The notes below the pieces were generated by a model that worked only from the letters and a program-made list of their open reading frames with translations, was not told the DNA's origin and did no database searches. Shown in pieces: positions 57,409 to 64,000 of a stretch of 64,000 nucleotides of DNA. The DNA is taken from the sequence record PQ850622.1. One strand, written 5' to 3'. The DNA is from Escherichia phage OliverMaurmann_Bas86. The position numbers and the translations under genes are program-made. Position 1 is the first letter of the stretch. Every line of letters begins with the position of its first letter.

Positions 57409-58218
57409 TTATACAATCTGGAGTTTAGAGGAGAATTTATCCGCTTCTTTAACATCGTTGCTGTTGATGATGTTATGAAGCTTTTCGATTGGAAGACGAG
57501 AGTGAAGTGACATCAACACTTCCATATCACAGCCTTGAACAACCTTATCCACTTGCTCATAAACAAACTTGCGGGTTGACTTCTCACCAATCCAGAAGTT
57601 AGAAAGAGAACGATATTCAATACCGTAGTCCTTGTAACGAATAGCAGAAGCCTTTCCGTACAACTCTTTACGACGAGTGTCTTTATCCATGATTACAGCT
57701 GGCAAGGACAGGAAGTAATCACACAGCACACCCAACATCATTTGAGTTTGTCGATTGATCTCCAAAGTTCCAGAGACACCGAGGTGCACATGGCCCCCAG
57801 CAGTACGCAAACCTTTATCGGTTGCGACTGGTGAAGGGTTCTTTTGTCCAGTGAAGGCGTTGAAATCAGGAGTACAGCCAAATACAAAAGCTGACGGATG
57901 GAATGATTCAAGCTCTTCTGAAGTGAACACATGAGAGCTAATCCCAAGCGCTGCTTCCAGACCACGATCATTCAGGATTTTGTTAGTCAGATCAATACCG
58001 CGCTGAATATTATCATCAAACGCTTCAAACCCTTTCTGTGGGTTAATATCAAACTCAGCCAGAACGTTGTCTTCTTGAAGACGAACATCAGGAGCCAGAT
58101 CAATTTTGTTATCTTTAGAACATCCCAGCTTACCAGCCACAGAGGTGATAATACCGGAAGCAGTACGAACAAACATTTCCGGATCCGACCCTATTAAGAA
58201 TTTACGTTTAGTAGTCAT
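57409..58218 (-). CDS. Second GS-like COOH-NH2 ligase (phage amidoligase type)
   Basis: 269 aa; GSDPEMF and GGHVHLG. Confidence 0.5.
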   Translation of the reverse strand: MTTKRKFLIGSDPEMFVRTASGIITSVAGKLGCSKDNKIDLAPDVRLQEDNVLAEFDINPQKGFEAFDDNIQRGIDLTNKILNDRGLEAALGISSHVFTSEELESFHPSAFVFGCTPDFNAFTGQKNPSPVATDKGLRTAGGHVHLGVSGTLEINRQTQMMLGVLCDYFLSLPAVIMDKDTRRKELYGKASAIRYKDYGIEYRSLSNFWIGEKSTRKFVYEQVDKVVQGCDMEVLMSLHSRLPIEKLHNIINSNDVKEADKFSSKLQIV

Positions 58219-58685
58219 GCTTTAGTCCAACCTTTATGAGATAGATAGTTTTTAAATCTGCCACTGTGCACAGCGCCCATGTGGCCTTGATGTAAGTCGT
58301 TGCTTCTACAGAAGTCTCTAAGATTGTATATTGTTACAACCTCGCCATCTGGAGATCTAAACTTCCAAAATCTAGCATTCCCTTTCACAGCGTTTTCTTC
58401 ACTGGTCAGAAGTTGGAAATTACTTGGGTGGTTATTAAGTTTATCGCCATCGATGTGATCAACAGTCATACCATCCGGAATAGGCCCAATAAACAATTCA
58501 TACATAAGTCTATGTAATAAAAAGTTCCTTGTTATCTTTTCAGGAGCCTGAACTGTTGTAAACTTAAGATAACCATCTTTATCAGGAAACAGTTTCCTCT
58601 GTTTCCCTGTTCTTGCATGGAATATACTACCGTCTTCGAACACCAAGAAGGTAGCAACTCCGACTACTAACTCCCTAAATTCCAT
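58215..58685 (-). CDS. HNH homing endonuclease inserted in amidoligase cluster
   Basis: 156 aa; HRLMYELFIGPIPDGMTVDHIDGDKLNNHPSNFQLLTSEEN. Confidence 0.75.
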   Translation of the reverse strand: MEFRELVVGVATFLVFEDGSIFHARTGKQRKLFPDKDGYLKFTTVQAPEKITRNFLLHRLMYELFIGPIPDGMTVDHIDGDKLNNHPSNFQLLTSEENAVKGNARFWKFRSPDGEVVTIYNLRDFCRSNDLHQGHMGAVHSGRFKNYLSHKGWTKA

Positions 58686-58709
58686 AGAGAGCCAATAAGG
58701 AAAGCACGC

Positions 58710-59660
58710 TTAGTCATTGTAATACTCCACGAGTTCATCAAAAAGGGAAACAACACGAGCACCAGCTTCTTCTGGTGTCATTGAGGAAGGTACTGCTTGC
58801 ATCAGTCGTTCGATAAAACTGCGAACAGTGATTCTGTCCATACGCTGATCTAATACTTCTCGCTTGTGACCTGCACAAGTTGACCAGAGACGCAACCACT
58901 CACTCATACTTTCATAATGGTCAGGGTCTTGGTCACGACGGCGTGCCATACGACGGAGAACTCCATCATTATGGTTTCGTACATAACCATCTCGGTTATC
59001 ATCAACACCGAACACATTCTGAACCCATACGTTTTCAGAAAATTCATCAGTGGTGCAAATTAGTGGCAGAAATGCAATTGCACTCATGTCACCATCAAAA
59101 TAAGTCGCTGCTGACTCATCGGTTGAGTCTACGTCATTACTATAACACCAGCGACCAAAGAAGTTACGACTTAAACCAGCTAAGCGTAGAGCTAAACCGA
59201 TTCGTTGTCGCTTAAGCAACTCTTCCTTGTCTTGTACGCCTTCCTGAAGGAACTCCATTCCATTAAAATCACCATCCAAATAGCTACGGATGGTCATTAG
59301 TCCAGTAAACACCTTGTCTGCTGGATGGTTTCGAAGGTTCACGGCAATGGAGTTCACCGAAGTGACAGAGAACATATCTTTATAGCAAGACATTGAGTTA
59401 AAAATGTCTGTTGCTTCAACTAAAGCTCTTTCGATATCTTTAGCCGGCACGCCATAAAAATTGTGAGGCCAGAAGTTAATAACTTCAATTTCTGAAGTTC
59501 TGTCACGAAGGCTTGTTCGGTTACGACTTTCACCGTTAATGTCTGTAACAGAATACATGTGCATACAGTTAAAAGTACCAAAGCAAGCTCTTCCTTTGAA
59601 CACTGACTCACCGAAATCCTCTGCCGGTGTTACCGGAGCAATCGATGCGGAGATTGACAT
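58710..59660 (-). CDS. Hypothetical protein within amidoligase cluster
   Basis: 316 aa ORF. Confidence 0.45.
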   Translation of the reverse strand: MSISASIAPVTPAEDFGESVFKGRACFGTFNCMHMYSVTDINGESRNRTSLRDRTSEIEVINFWPHNFYGVPAKDIERALVEATDIFNSMSCYKDMFSVTSVNSIAVNLRNHPADKVFTGLMTIRSYLDGDFNGMEFLQEGVQDKEELLKRQRIGLALRLAGLSRNFFGRWCYSNDVDSTDESAATYFDGDMSAIAFLPLICTTDEFSENVWVQNVFGVDDNRDGYVRNHNDGVLRRMARRRDQDPDHYESMSEWLRLWSTCAGHKREVLDQRMDRITVRSFIERLMQAVPSSMTPEEAGARVVSLFDELVEYYND

Positions 59661-59668
59661 ATTCGCCT

Positions 59669-60886
59669 CTATTTATTAAAGAATAATTTTTCCATAATGG
59701 TTTCCCACTCTTCTGAGGGGAGGGTTGAGAACCCGTTTCCGTGAAGCCTGTTTGTCATGCAACTAATAATATTGTACATGTTGTAGCTTCGGGTGGATTC
59801 TGTTCCATTGTTCCAGTTATAACCGAAAACAATTTTATCGAAGGAGGTTTTATCCGTAGTTACTTCTCGGATGAACTCAACCAAGAGCGATTTCTCTGTG
59901 ATGACCGCACGTTCACCATCTGGCAGATTACAATACTGAGGAAGAAGGATTGGTAAGAACATCGAATTGTTCACTCGACAATCGCGCACACCTTCACTGC
60001 GATAGATTAGGCTTGAGAAGTCTTCATCACGCAGGTGTCCTTCACCTTCAGTGTATTCACACTGTCGCCATTTGGTCTGGCGAGGTTCAACCATTGTACT
60101 ACCAACGCCTACTGTATACAGAGACGCTTGGAAGATACATGAATCGTAATCATTCCCTGTTAAAGCAACTTGCTCATTGCCGAACACATCCACTGAAGAG
60201 TTGATCAGTCGGCTGAATGCAAGAGAGGCTAAAGGGGACCAACCTTTCTTATACATCTTGTTCAACATTTCATACACAGCAGATTTTTCATCATCTGTAT
60301 AGAATGTACGATTCAGCATCAGATAGAACAGAGCGCGATCAGCAGGACAACCATCAGTACAAACACCCATGAATCCTACTTCATGCCATACCAGACATGA
60401 GTCAGAATCCTTATCCATGAATGCTTCAAAGGCTTCCATTACAGCCCTGTCAGTAACATCAGGACGGTTGTTTTCTTCTGCCCATGTTTCTACATGAGAA
60501 GGAGGACGAGGGTCTCCATTCTCCACCCCTTCGCGGAAATATTGAGTGGTAATAGGCTTTTTATCACCATAACGTTTTACACCATAAGCGGGAAGGTGTG
60601 TACCAGAGTTCCAGATGTACTTAATTTCGGACATAGGCATCATGTTTTCAAGAACGTTCTCTTCAGCAGTGCCTTGACGAACCATCATATTTTCACTCCA
60701 CACCTTAATGCGGATATTCCAGCCGTAGTTGCTGTCATACGTGTTATAATAATCAGGATCACCATCTTCATCTTCATCATAATCACCACCCTGATAGTAA
60801 CCTGCTTTCAGGAAACCATAACAAGGAGGCCAGATGGTTACAACATCATCTGATTCTTTCCAGCTTTGAAGTGTTACAGGGAACAT
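59669..60886 (-). CDS. Hypothetical protein within amidoligase cluster
   Basis: 405 aa; acidic DYDEDEDGDPDYY stretch near N-terminus. Confidence 0.45.
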   Translation of the reverse strand: MFPVTLQSWKESDDVVTIWPPCYGFLKAGYYQGGDYDEDEDGDPDYYNTYDSNYGWNIRIKVWSENMMVRQGTAEENVLENMMPMSEIKYIWNSGTHLPAYGVKRYGDKKPITTQYFREGVENGDPRPPSHVETWAEENNRPDVTDRAVMEAFEAFMDKDSDSCLVWHEVGFMGVCTDGCPADRALFYLMLNRTFYTDDEKSAVYEMLNKMYKKGWSPLASLAFSRLINSSVDVFGNEQVALTGNDYDSCIFQASLYTVGVGSTMVEPRQTKWRQCEYTEGEGHLRDEDFSSLIYRSEGVRDCRVNNSMFLPILLPQYCNLPDGERAVITEKSLLVEFIREVTTDKTSFDKIVFGYNWNNGTESTRSYNMYNIISCMTNRLHGNGFSTLPSEEWETIMEKLFFNK

Positions 60887-60897
60887 CTTTTACCTCT

Positions 60898-61260
60898 TTA
60901 CTCTGCTACCAAAAGGCTCAGAGATTTGCGAATGTAGTCAATACTACGGAAGTTTCGATAGTTCTCTTGGAAGCGCATTTTTTCAAACTCTGCTTCCTGA
61001 AGCTCTACCTCTGCTGCTTTATATCCTGATAAAGCTAAACTTACCACATCCTGAGGTAAGGTATTACGACGGCGAATAAGATATTTATTCGCTTTTAGTT
61101 TACCTTGTGCACGAGCCATTTTGGCCTTTGCCGCCTTGATACCATGAGAAATCCAAAGCAGTTGCTGTTTCAGATCTTCCTCATCCATACCACCTAAATC
61201 ATTTGCTACTTTATGAAGCGTAGACAGGTTCACATGGCCTTTAATGGGGCGTAGGTTCAT
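60898..61260 (-). CDS. Hypothetical protein
   Basis: 120 aa, helical/basic. Confidence 0.45.
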   Translation of the reverse strand: MNLRPIKGHVNLSTLHKVANDLGGMDEEDLKQQLLWISHGIKAAKAKMARAQGKLKANKYLIRRRNTLPQDVVSLALSGYKAAEVELQEAEFEKMRFQENYRNFRSIDYIRKSLSLLVAE

Positions 61261-61424
61261 AACTTCTCCTGTTTGTCACATTGATTGGTTAGCCAGTTGT
61301 AAGACCCTCTGTTATTCTTGCTTAACTCGCAAGATGCAAAAGAGTACATCCTGACAAACCCCACAGTGGCTAAGCAAATAAAGATTGCTGCCAATAAGAA
61401 TTTAGCTTTCAACTTATTATCCAT
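61257..61424 (-). CDS. Small membrane/lipoprotein-like protein (55 aa), absent from ORF track
   Basis: MDNKLKAKFLLAAIFICLATVGF...; stop overlaps the next gene's ATG (ATGA); GAAGAGG RBS. Confidence 0.3.
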   Translation of the reverse strand: MDNKLKAKFLLAAIFICLATVGFVRMYSFASCELSKNNRGSYNWLTNQCDKQEKL

Positions 61425-61448
61425 ACAACCTCTTCTTTGAACTTAAAA

Positions 61449-61472
61449 AAGGACTCTCATAAGAGAGCCAAG
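61449..61472 (-). terminator. Hairpin + U6 on - strand (early-region terminator); shares a 16-nt motif with 63535-63555
   Basis: Read directly. Confidence 0.45.
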
Positions 61473-61665
61473 CTTTAAGGCCAATTAAATAGATATCACC
61501 CAATATCTGTGGATAACCTGCTCTTAAAATATTCTATCCGACGGATGTTCGAGGATTATTCCTCTCCCTAGCATCGGCCCCATACGGGAAAGATTAAATT
61601 AAGATTAGGTTAGTTGAGCCAGAATAGCTCACATAGCCCTCTGATACTCACGAGGGCTATAGATG

Positions 61666-61917
61666 TTACTCTGTATCTCCGTCGAAGCGGAGGATTGCTG
61701 TCGGAACAGGAATAACTGCCATGTCAATCTCTAAACGGAAGAGATGACCTGTGCTCAACTGAACTGCTGTTACCGGCTTAGCGATACCAGCAACAGAGGC
61801 AGAAGGGATTCGGATAAAGAATTCCCCCGGATATTCAACCGAACGAAACACATCTCCCGGTGTCATATCTTTTACTTGAACAGTAGGCTCAGGAGGTGTT
61901 TTATTGGAAATTTGCAT
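61666..61917 (-). CDS. Small early hypothetical protein
   Basis: 83 aa ORF; loosely resembles the ORFs at 62770 and 63037. Confidence 0.4.
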   Translation of the reverse strand: MQISNKTPPEPTVQVKDMTPGDVFRSVEYPGEFFIRIPSASVAGIAKPVTAVQLSTGHLFRLEIDMAVIPVPTAILRFDGDTE

Positions 61918-62150
61918 TACAAACCTTTCTTAGCACGATCTTTGGCAGTCTTGCCAGTGCGAATACGGTGGGAAACATTAACCAGTTCGCCGCCTTCGAC
62001 GATGGTTACGCTTTTATTTTTCGCAATATCGAATACAGTCTTCTCTGTACCGCCCAGACGAATCTGTTTAGGTTCGCTGTGGGTCTGAGTTGATTTAGAC
62101 TGGAACTGGAACGGCTGACGGATGGCATCAATTGCGCTAACTTTAGACAT
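61917..62150 (-). CDS. Small basic early hypothetical protein
   Basis: 77 aa ORF. Confidence 0.4.
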   Translation of the reverse strand: MSKVSAIDAIRQPFQFQSKSTQTHSEPKQIRLGGTEKTVFDIAKNKSVTIVEGGELVNVSHRIRTGKTAKDRAKKGL

Positions 62151-62177
62151 GCTTTATTACCTTACATTAAAGAGAGA

Positions 62178-62606
62178 TTAAACAACAAATTGGAACGCTT
62201 CGTATCCAAACTTGTATGAGAAGTCATGCTTGAATTTCACTACACGACCACGATCACGGAAAGATTTCAGACGACTAATAAAGCCAGCCATCGGCTCAGG
62301 GTCAATAGGGCTACGAATCTTCATAGCTACAGAGTGCAGCTTGAAGCGTTTACCAGTGCTACAGGCCATCATCACATACTCCATACGAGTAGTCCAGATG
62401 TTGAGCACCATGCTTGTTTTCTCCGCTGACCAACCAGTCTTGCGGGCGATTTCTTTATGGACATTAAGCTCCAAAGGAAGAGGGAATTGCTTGTTGAATG
62501 AAGCCGGATATAGCTTGACCAGAAGGTCAATGTTTTCTTTATACGTTAAGTAAGCCAATTTCTTGCTTACGTTAGGGAATTTCCCAGACATTTTTTGAAG
62601 CTCCAA
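62178..62606 (-). CDS. ProQ/FinO-domain-like protein (possible RNA chaperone)
   Basis: 142 aa; LVKLYPASFNKQFPLPLEL...GWS...VLNIWT...GKRFKL loosely follows the ProQ N-terminal pattern as recalled. Confidence 0.35.
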   Translation of the reverse strand: MELQKMSGKFPNVSKKLAYLTYKENIDLLVKLYPASFNKQFPLPLELNVHKEIARKTGWSAEKTSMVLNIWTTRMEYVMMACSTGKRFKLHSVAMKIRSPIDPEPMAGFISRLKSFRDRGRVVKFKHDFSYKFGYEAFQFVV

Positions 62607-62769
62607 AACAGCGCCGAAAAGAGAGGCGTCATAGTAGCTAAAGGGAGGAGAGAAGAGGGCTTATTTACTTGCCTTTTTCTGTCCGTTAATGTACCAGAGA
62701 ACTGAGCCATCAGGCTGTCGCTGACCGAAGCCTTTCAGGTTAACCATTTCTTCTTCAGAGTAGGCACGT

Positions 62770-63033
62770 TTATTCACTGATCTTCTCCACTAAATCCAGA
62801 GTTGCCGATTCAAACACAACACCAACTGGCATACTAGGTGCCATATTACGAACGTATCCACTCTGCATAGACACGGCTCGAGAGTATTCAGAACCGTTAG
62901 AGCTTTTGTTTACCTTCATGTAAAGGGTTTGTTCTTTATCTTCTTTCAGAGTAAAGAAAGAGCCGGGAAGAAGCCCCTGAACAGTCAGAGGGATATCTGC
63001 AACATGAGTCTTATTGATAGTAAGAACTGTCAT
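62770..63033 (-). CDS. Small early hypothetical protein
   Basis: 87 aa ORF. Confidence 0.4.
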   Translation of the reverse strand: MTVLTINKTHVADIPLTVQGLLPGSFFTLKEDKEQTLYMKVNKSSNGSEYSRAVSMQSGYVRNMAPSMPVGVVFESATLDLVEKISE

Positions 63034-63036
63034 TGC

Positions 63037-63291
63037 TTATTCCTTAATAGTTGCTTCAGCTTTAATAGGAATAACAGCAACATCTTTACGAGGTGCTGTC
63101 GCTCGGCCCGTATTAAGACAGGCTACAAGTCTGTGCTCATCCGCACCCTTAATACAGAGTCGAGTAGAGAACTCGGTAGACAATAAGATGTACAAATCAT
63201 CATCTTCACTATTAGGGAACATGAAGCAATCCCCGAGTCGTAAAGCACTGAGAGGTATTGCATTCTTACCTGCTGGTTTGTTAACTTTCAT
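63037..63291 (-). CDS. Small early hypothetical protein
   Basis: 84 aa; AAGGTGG RBS. Confidence 0.4.
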   Translation of the reverse strand: MKVNKPAGKNAIPLSALRLGDCFMFPNSEDDDLYILLSTEFSTRLCIKGADEHRLVACLNTGRATAPRKDVAVIPIKAEATIKE

Positions 63292-63534
63292 TTAACCACC
63301 TTTAGTTATGGACCGATTTATGAGAGAACTCTTGGAAGAATGCTTTCATAAATAGGGGGAGGGGACGAATCCTCCCATATCCTATTAATTAATATTGCAT
63401 GTAAGATCTAACAATTCGATGCTGTAGTGGATAGCGTAAAACGCTTACCGGCATTAAACCCAGCCCATGAGGGGCTTATGTGAATAAAATGCTCAACATT
63501 GAGCGGTTAGTTGATAGGAGATCTGAAGTCCTAT

Positions 63535-63555
63535 CTCAAAGGACTCTCGTAAGAA
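63535..63555 (-). terminator. Hairpin (7-bp stem, 4-nt loop) + UUU on - strand
   Basis: Read directly; shares AAGGACTCTC(G/A)TAAGA with 61449-61465. Confidence 0.35.
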
Positions 63556-63567
63556 TCCTTCACGATA

Positions 63568-63834
63568 TTACTTAGTAACAAAGACTGTCACCTTATCCAT
63601 TACCCAGCCTATCAACATAAGTAAAGGTAAGAAGAGGATAAAGATCAGCATAAAAGGCCAGAAGAATATCACCGTCCAAATAGAGTATTCATCAGGCTTA
63701 CCACTCCACGAGGAATGGAAGAAGTTGTAGAGTGTATTGGTTTTGAAGCACCACTTAACTACAATGGCTGCCAACCACCAACCAATAACATAAATCAGGA
63801 GGACATACGCTGCTGTAACCATTGACCGTTCCAT
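63568..63834 (-). CDS. Small two-TM membrane protein
   Basis: 88 aa with two long hydrophobic segments. Confidence 0.4.
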   Translation of the reverse strand: MERSMVTAAYVLLIYVIGWWLAAIVVKWCFKTNTLYNFFHSSWSGKPDEYSIWTVIFFWPFMLIFILFLPLLMLIGWVMDKVTVFVTK

Positions 63835-64000
63835 TGATAGTTGCGAGTGACCACGTTTCCGTGGATAAGAAAGTGCTGTCGACGAAGGGTATCTTTAACG
63901 TTGTAATAGGCAGCGTTTCCAAGATGGCCTTCTTTGATAAGCCAACGCAGGTTGCGAATACCAACTAACAACATAAGTACTTGTTGCTTGTATGAAGTTT

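Follow-up and report, generated by a model that had tools for sequence, protein, structure and literature searches.

Does the minus-strand open reading frame (ORF) at positions 62178-62606 of the Escherichia phage OliverMaurmann_Bas86 sequence (PQ850622.1) encode an RNA-binding protein of the FinO/ProQ family? This ORF lies near the end of the 64,000-nucleotide stretch of DNA that was analysed, which is called the window in this study. The question was raised by an initial annotation, which had weakly suggested that the central region of the ORF follows the pattern of the N-terminal FinO-like domain of ProQ. Among the chaperones that associate with bacterial small RNAs (sRNAs), the FinO/ProQ proteins form the third major class, and to our knowledge, the members that have been studied are all chromosomal or plasmid-borne. 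Based on the results below and on the analogy with these members, we propose, with a probability of about 80%, that the locus is a functional gene of the early cluster and encodes a basic, single-domain RNA-binding protein of the FinO/ProQ family, which most likely binds terminator-type 3′ ends.

The maximal ORF (62178-62606, minus strand) could encode 142 amino acids (aa) from a TTG codon at 62604-62606. However, direct reading of the sequence showed that this TTG overlaps a Shine-Dalgarno sequence (GGAG, 62601-62604), which is located 9 nucleotides (nt) before an ATG at 62591, and a ribosome-binding site is annotated at the equivalent place in phage SU7. In addition, the orthologues in SU7, Bas87, ECBP2, and other phages are all annotated as 414 nt. 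Thus, the product most likely has 137 aa and starts at ATG 62591, and the 5′ extension of the maximal ORF (62592..62606, minus strand) is probably untranslated. The resulting coding sequence (62178..62591, minus strand, stop codon included) is based on the ORF list, the orthologue lengths, the ratio of non-synonymous to synonymous substitution rates (dN/dS), the match to PF04352, and a codon check.

To estimate the constraint on the gene, nine orthologues of Suseptimavirus, a genus in Gordonclarkvirinae (phiEco32-like C3 podoviruses), were compared. The dN/dS values were 0.02-0.11, with 6-23 synonymous versus 1-8.5 non-synonymous differences per diverged pair, and residues 6-100 were almost invariant. 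The comparison of these orthologues confirmed that the minus-strand ORF is a translated and constrained gene under strong purifying selection. Thus, the ORF flagged in the initial annotation is real, but its likely start is ATG 62591 rather than the TTG. Two overlapping ORFs on the plus strand (62212-62553 and 62226-62429) should be regarded as spurious, because the purifying selection confirms the minus-strand frame. The predicted protein has a mass of about 16 kDa and an isoelectric point of 10.0, with 24 Lys and Arg residues versus 11 Asp and Glu residues.

The sequence evidence for the family comes from profile comparisons. PF04352 (ProQ/FINO) was the sole Pfam family found at E ≤ 0.001, and its profile positions 5-78 of 109 matched residues 18-87 of the protein (E = 1e-5, 25.9 bits), so the pattern seen earlier in the central region is real and beyond chance. 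The representative of the cluster that is 98% identical to the protein also carries a precomputed PF04352 assignment. Furthermore, when 1.84 billion representatives were searched exhaustively with HMMER, 43 relatives were recovered (11 below 1e-10), and 39 sequences taken from these relatives were used to build a clade alignment and profile. All of the 39 aligned members matched PF04352 individually (best 1.7e-20); a search against this family was the check that the initial annotation had proposed, and its outcome is positive. When the clade profile was compared with the solved structures, all five solved FinO-domain proteins were matched, and there was no unrelated protein at E < 0.5. The best match was the N-terminal domain of Escherichia coli ProQ (5NB9, 1.9e-14), followed by RocC (7RGU, 4.9e-12; 7RGU, 7RGT, and 7RGS all about 5e-12), FinO (1DVO, 7.5e-10), the Legionella ProQ homologue Lpp1663 (6S10, 4.5e-9), and NMB1681 (3MW6, 2.3e-6).

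However, it should be noted that three results for the protein taken singly weigh against the assignment. Its own Pfam score of 25.9 bits is 1.1 below the gathering cut-off of 27. The single-sequence phmmer search against the PDB gave only a chance match to a mannosidase (E = 1.3), and BLASTP against the N-terminal domain of E. coli ProQ gave no match. Meanwhile, a word-indexed homologue search recovered the near-identical cluster only, and the PHROGs family of the protein is phrog_18901, of unknown function. Taken together, the homology to FinO/ProQ is detectable at the profile or structure level only. Two other families were considered and rejected, both of which appeared only as sub-threshold matches in the range up to E = 10. 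Ribosomal protein L31 scored 18.2 bits in NCBIfam versus a cut-off of 38 bits (Pfam E = 0.079), so both scores fall well short of the cut-offs, and the structural model confidently shows helices in this region. Pfam DUF7343 scored 17.7 bits versus a cut-off of 27.6 bits.

The predicted structure leads to the same family. An AlphaFold2 model built with the clade alignment had a predicted local distance difference test score (pLDDT) of 91.5 and a predicted template modelling (TM) score of 0.85. The core FinO domain (residues 10-110; 62262..62564, minus strand) was delimited using the model, Foldseek alignments, and profile alignments to ProQ, RocC, and FinO. In the model, helices at 10-27, 44-52, 56-66, and 70-79 are followed by a beta-hairpin (81-83/93-95) and a helix at 98-110, so that the FinO fold, in which a beta-hairpin separates helices 4 and 5 of a helical bundle, is present; only about nine disordered residues stand ahead of helix 1. 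The Foldseek search against the PDB showed that the top 26 matches were all FinO-domain structures (probability 1.00, target TM-score up to 0.74), and the next match had E of about 1. Among the predicted viral structures of BFVD, the SU7 orthologue was the best match, followed by proteins of Salmonella phage 7-11 and of Aeromonas, Cronobacter, and rhizobial phages. A FinO-like fold was the second thing that the initial annotation had asked to see, and the model bears it out. Both the profiles and the model thus support that the protein is a member of the FinO/ProQ family with the FinO fold.

In addition to the core, the protein has a clade-specific C-terminal extension (residues 111-137; 62181..62261, minus strand), recognized from the model, the clade alignment, and the Foldseek spans. 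It comprises an extra helix (114-128) and the tail FGYEAFQFVV, was modelled with pLDDT of 96-97, and is outside the stretch aligning to solved FinO domains. The Foldseek alignments to RocC, FinO, and NMB1681 span about 100-113 columns. For instance, the alignment to RocC covers about 107 of the 137 residues, and that to G0X555 of phage 7-11 covers 119 at a root-mean-square deviation of 1.4. In the relatives, the hydrophobic tail has the motif F-x-K-x-F/Y-x3-F/Y-G-x-P-A-F.

To see which residues of the RNA-binding surface are kept, equivalences were taken from the HMMER alignments and from column counts over the 39 clade members, and residue roles were taken from the paper on the RocC-RocR structure (PMC9674577). 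The two residues of the 3′-nucleotide pocket, Tyr72 (codon 62376..62378, minus strand; ProQ Y70 and RocC Y87) and Arg82 (codon 62346..62348, minus strand; ProQ R80 and RocC R97), are invariant (39/39). In RocC, both residues are essential, and the R97M change reduces the affinity more than 200-fold (PMC9674577). The second contact surface of the characterised proteins is a helix N-cap motif with a capping Ser or Thr and a conserved Arg (ProQ S53 and R58; RocC S70 and R75; FinO R121) (PMC9674577). According to the column counts and alignments, the corresponding region of the phage protein is S55-A56-E57-K58-T59-S60 (62412..62429, minus strand). The capping residue is kept, since Ser55 corresponds to ProQ S53 and RocC S70, and this column contains Ser or Thr in 29 of the 39 members.

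However, three substitutions speak against a canonical mode of binding. First, ProQ K54 (RocC K71) is replaced by Ala56, and only 8 of the 39 members have Lys or Arg here. Second, the N-cap Arg (ProQ R58, RocC R75) is replaced by Ser60, and Arg or Lys is found in only 6/39. Third, the near-universal Gly of the beta-turn (ProQ G37, RocC G52) is Asn43 (codon 62463..62465, minus strand) in this protein and in the Suseptimavirus orthologues, although most of the clade has Gly (34/39; Asn 4/39). The loss of the N-cap Arg matters, because the R75D change costs RocC more than 100-fold in affinity (PMC9674577). Thus, with the basic residues of the N-cap lost and the turn Gly replaced, the recognition of the hairpin could be non-canonical or weaker than in the characterised proteins. 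Nevertheless, Asn can also take the turn conformation, and the pocket need not be abolished. The clade conserves instead W66, R69 (RocC R84), E71, K34 (Lys or Arg in 95%), and K18 (79%). As judged from the alignments, the 3′-end pocket of this minimal FinO-domain protein is intact, and its hairpin-contact surface has been remodelled.

The same substitutions could be read in another way, namely that the FinO fold now serves another purpose than binding RNA 3′ ends, such as binding protein or DNA. The loss of the N-cap Arg and Lys, the Asn at the turn, the conserved clade-specific C-terminal helix and tail, and the further C-terminal domain of unknown function in some relatives (227-250 aa; 234 aa in 7-11 gp122) would all fit such a change. 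However, a non-RNA function is very improbable, because Y72 and R82, which are the residues most diagnostic of 3′-nucleotide binding, are invariant in all of the 39 members. W66, R69, and K34 are conserved as well, and the protein is strongly basic. We know of no FinO domain for which a non-RNA function has been described.

The position of the gene bears on the time at which the protein may act. Over 3 kb, this region of the window and Escherichia phage AnnaHegner_Bas87 share 96.7% identity; the identity to SU7, ECBP2, IME267, and other Suseptimavirus phages is 92-94%. The nucleotide sequence of the gene is identical to that of Bas87_0089, and the orthologue in SU7 is SU7_91. The GenBank records of the gene all read "hypothetical protein", and the automatic UniProt label of the SU7 orthologue is "ProQ/FinO domain-containing protein". 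The gene is found within a run of small minus-strand ORFs in the last few kb of the window, and the early genes of SU10 and phiEco32 correspond by synteny to this leftward small-gene cluster. By this synteny, the gene is probably expressed early. The SU7 annotation shows the gene as one of six that form a unit, with a predicted promoter at one end and a terminator at the other.

The genes of the early cluster have been described as likely acting in host takeover (PMC8948821), which would suit a protein that competes with ProQ of the host. Interference with the sRNA networks of the host had been suggested in the initial annotation and is one of several conceivable roles. As a decoy, the FinO domain without the linker and the C-terminal domain of ProQ would occupy the terminator ligands of ProQ but not perform the tasks of ProQ, and would so perturb the sRNA and mRNA networks of the host during takeover. 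The E. coli host encodes ProQ, its N-terminal domain is the best match of the clade profile among the solved structures, and the phage protein indeed has neither the linker nor the C-terminal domain. However, the specificity residues K54, R58, and R32 of ProQ are not conserved, so the overlap with the ProQ ligands is uncertain, and we regard the decoy role as doubtful.

The comparison with the Kuravirus phage Bas90 showed that the gene is an accessory one. Using local blastn against Bas90 and the Bas90 annotation, we delimited a cassette of 469 bp (62151..62619). In Bas90, there are 66 bp in place of window positions 62151-62619; both flanking small genes are conserved, and the FinO gene is absent. 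At the level of these sequences, the gene is thus a clean indel, an accessory cassette relative to Bas90. Since this closely related phage is without the gene, the comparison argues that the gene modulates infection and is non-essential.

How would such a protein act? The characterised proteins RocC, ProQ, and FinO suggest that its most likely ligand is an intrinsic terminator, of which it would clamp the stem-loop at its base along with the short single-stranded 3′ tail. The invariant Tyr72 and Arg82, together with the turn at Asn43, would form a pocket in which the last nucleotide is buried. The bound RNA would then be protected or remodelled early in infection, with its 3′ end shielded from exonucleases and polyadenylation or with RNA-RNA pairing promoted. 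We infer the RNA binding, the ligand type, and the biological consequence from these characterised proteins. One candidate ligand is close at hand: the operon of the FinO gene is closed by an intrinsic-terminator-like hairpin (61452..61469, minus strand; GGCTCTCTTATGAGAGTC then CTTTTTT), which was found in the terminator scan and has an annotated SU7 terminator at the equivalent place.

A more specific version of this explanation is that the protein is a general protector of phage transcripts, which binds the terminators of early and middle mRNAs, keeps PNPase, RNase II, and poly(A) polymerase away from their 3′ ends, and so raises the stability of phage mRNA, in parallel to ProQ on host mRNAs. 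The conserved 3′-end pocket is consistent with it. Furthermore, terminator-like hairpins are over-represented in window positions 58000-64000 (14 versus 4.2 ± 2.0 in shuffles), and 10 of the 14 are on the transcribed strand; sigma-70-like promoter matches are under-represented in the same region (2 versus 12.1 ± 3.0). There is also a precedent, since ProQ is reported to inhibit poly(A) polymerase and thereby to protect mRNA 3′ ends (PMC12086684). However, Bas90 has a very similar early region without the gene, and the gene is thus dispensable for this genome architecture. This version is a possible but tentative one.

Two structured non-coding elements flank the operon and could provide a more dedicated partner. 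The upstream element (63345-63567, minus strand, about 223 nt) starts at the stop codon of the ORF 63568-63834, and its other end is a hairpin rich in GC (GGGAGGATTCGTCCCCTCCC). Its folding z-score is -3.9, and no ORF of at least 30 aa was found in it on the minus strand. RNAalifold predicted 33 pairs, 8 of which have compensatory changes, and the compensatory pairs are located in two hairpins; just 5′ of the terminal hairpin there is an invariant block, UUGUUAG(A/G)UCUUACAUG. This element was found in 143 phage records, including phiEco32, the sampled Kuravirus and Suseptimavirus phages, and the N4-like Gamaleyavirus. In the Gamaleyavirus phages it adjoins transfer RNA (tRNA) genes; there are no tRNAs in the window. 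From its sequence features, the element looks like an undescribed phage non-coding RNA and is a candidate for one.

Meanwhile, the downstream element (61425-61665, minus strand) ends in the terminator 61452-61469 and has a minimum free energy z-score of -4.5. Non-coding DNA of Salmonella phage 7-11, annotated there as "terminator", and of Gamaleyavirus PhAPEC7 matches it with about 70-74% identity. In PhAPEC7, its counterpart is about 90 nt from the counterpart of the upstream element. Both elements are conserved at the DNA level in unrelated phages. Rfam, searched at the gathering and at permissive thresholds, gave nothing significant for them; the nearest family for the downstream element, STnc100, was rejected (19.7 bits versus a cut-off of 47 bits, E = 0.18). 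In the window, nhmmer found no further copies of the upstream element, and local blastn of both elements found no significant second copy.

The protein might then be a dedicated matchmaker of a phage regulatory RNA, like FinO with FinP, FopA with Inc, or RocC with RocR, and would stabilise one sRNA or antisense RNA and help it to pair with an mRNA of the phage or of the host. For FinO-domain proteins of mobile elements, one or two dedicated RNA partners are typical (PMC9977716, PMC9674577), which is a precedent for this role, and the two flanking stretches, both ended by terminators and the upstream one with compensatory changes, would be suitable partners. However, both elements also occur in phages without a FinO gene (Kuravirus and Gamaleyavirus), so there is no co-variation with the gene, and we rejected both as strict partners. 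In addition, the promoter and terminator scan detected no antisense promoter near the gene, and there is no Rfam match. Matchmaking is therefore rather unlikely in our opinion. On the plus strand, a terminator-like hairpin (TTGACCAGAAGGTCAA then TGTTTTCTTT; 62515-62530) is antisense to the 5′ part of the FinO ORF; it may be a chance occurrence, because an antisense promoter was not detected.

The proposals on specificity can be combined. In this case, a strictly virulent coliphage would use, at an early stage of infection, a FinO-domain protein that has kept its 3′-end pocket. The N-cap surface would have been replaced by the newly conserved K18, K34, and R69 and the C-terminal helix, giving an RNA specificity unlike that of host ProQ, and the protein would serve as an anti-ProQ decoy or as a dedicated chaperone of a structured phage RNA such as 63345-63567. 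This combination is speculative and on balance improbable. If it were true, the protein would be the first functionally defined phage riboregulator of the FinO family.

The neighbouring genes gave few further hints. Pfam gave no matches on ten neighbouring ORFs, PHROGs gave only families of unknown function for the neighbours, and the PADLOC defence models matched neither the FinO gene nor four neighbours. Three ORFs of about 85 aa in the operon of the FinO gene (61666-61917, 62770-63033, and 63037-63291, all minus strand) match overlapping PHROGs families (phrog_7832, 12612, and 6570, all of unknown function). These shared matches suggest a paralogous family of small early proteins around the FinO gene. 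Further away, the window has a 156-aa ORF (58215-58685, minus strand) where SU7 is annotated with the HNH endonuclease SU7_85 (471 nt), and the corresponding neighbours have no gene between them in Bas87, which is the closest relative over the final 3 kb of the window. By this comparison, the window phage probably differs from Bas87 by at least one homing-endonuclease insertion at this place.

The results of the distribution analysis showed that the clade is rare. Using tblastn, we found it in only 76 of 50,697 phage records, which belong to Suseptimavirus, Salmonella 7-11-like phages, Ounavirinae of Erwinia and Salmonella (Kolesnikvirus), and Aeromonas and Shewanella phages. The labels "RNA chaperone", "ProQ/FINO", or "sRNA-binding protein" have been given to several homologues in phages of Erwinia, Salmonella, Aeromonas, and Shewanella. 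No plasmid relatives were found by tblastn, and there were none in 5,426 E. coli genomes by blastn. Thus, at the sensitivity of BLAST, these searches give no sign of a recent capture from a plasmid or from the host. In two unrelated phages, Salmonella phage 7-11 (3983-4687) and Erwinia phage Pistou (3001-3462), genes of NAD+ salvage (those for nicotinamide phosphoribosyltransferase and PRPP synthetase) are at most about 1 kb away from the FinO homologue. The extra C-terminal domain of 7-11 gp122 is common to the metagenomic relatives of 227-250 aa, and G0X575 (125 aa) is a second protein of phage 7-11 with the FinO fold.

Phage-borne FinO/ProQ homologues are already present in phylogenies of the family (PMC9977716). 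FinO-like proteins have been described as encoded "rarely in phage genomes", with KASIA_p031, which is also among early genes, as an example (PMC8541194). Among the papers found, including these two, there was no functional study of any phage member of the family. In effect, the present result upgrades the annotation, in that a "hypothetical protein" becomes a "FinO-domain protein", and no new kind of system is involved; FinO/ProQ-domain proteins in virulent phages are of a known kind, although rare. Nevertheless, the protein is a natural variant that keeps the 3′-end pocket and has lost the basic residues of the N-cap, and it is thus informative on the specificity of FinO domains. It is identical to Bas87_0089 of an E. 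coli-infecting phage in the BASEL collection, and there are close natural relatives without the gene. Since, in addition, the ligand set of host ProQ is well mapped, experiments on this protein are practical.

Among the characterised proteins, the N-terminal domain of E. coli ProQ (5NB9) is the best match of the sequence profile. The order of helices and beta-hairpin is alike, and Y70, R80, and Ser53 of ProQ correspond to Y72, R82, and Ser55 of the phage protein. However, the identity is about 15-20%, ProQ is chromosomal whereas the protein studied here is phage-encoded, and K54, R58, R32, and G37 of ProQ are Ala56, Ser60, Leu38, and Asn43, respectively. Furthermore, ProQ in the strict sense has about 230 aa, with a FinO domain, a basic linker, and a C-terminal Tudor-like domain, whereas the phage protein has 137 aa without the linker or the Tudor-like domain and with an extra C-terminal helix. 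Because these parts are missing and the N-cap motif is remodelled, the sequence and the model indicate that the phage protein is not a ProQ orthologue.

The best structural match is Legionella pneumophila RocC in complex with the RocR terminator (7RGU and 7RGT; Foldseek E = 3.3e-4, probability 1.0, target TM-score 0.68-0.74). Both pocket residues of RocC (Y87 and R97) are kept, RocC R84 corresponds to R69, and RocC K73 aligns with Lys58, but the basic N-cap residues K71 and R75 are missing. RocC also has a long C-terminal extension and one dedicated sRNA partner. F-plasmid FinO (1DVO) has a homologous domain (Foldseek E = 2.6e-3), and both proteins are encoded on mobile elements. However, FinO has a long N-terminal helix, which the phage protein does not have, and acts on the FinP/traJ antisense pair. 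The phage protein is thus not a FinO in the strict sense: it has no long N-terminal helix, no plasmid homologues by tblastn, and no antisense partner in the promoter, terminator, and Rfam scans.

The class of minimal FinO-domain proteins, with a single domain, short extensions, and about 120-150 aa, describes the 137-aa protein well. In this class, NMB1681 of Neisseria meningitidis (3MW6), a minimal ProQ of about 140 aa, likewise has a FinO domain with short extensions only. However, NMB1681 is a chromosomal global RNA-binding protein with a canonical N-cap, and its sequence match to the clade profile is weaker (2.3e-6). The proteins of the same clade in other virulent phages include Salmonella 7-11 gp122, Erwinia phiEa21-4 gp115, Kolesnikvirus "ProQ", those of the Aeromonas LAh phages, and Shewanella KASIA_p031, with 28-41% identity by tblastn and a query TM-score of 0.63-0.77 in BFVD. 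They belong to different phage families (Grimontviridae, Ounavirinae, and others), and some have an extra C-terminal domain, but they have the W-x2-R-x-E-Y and FNK motifs in common with the Bas86 protein.

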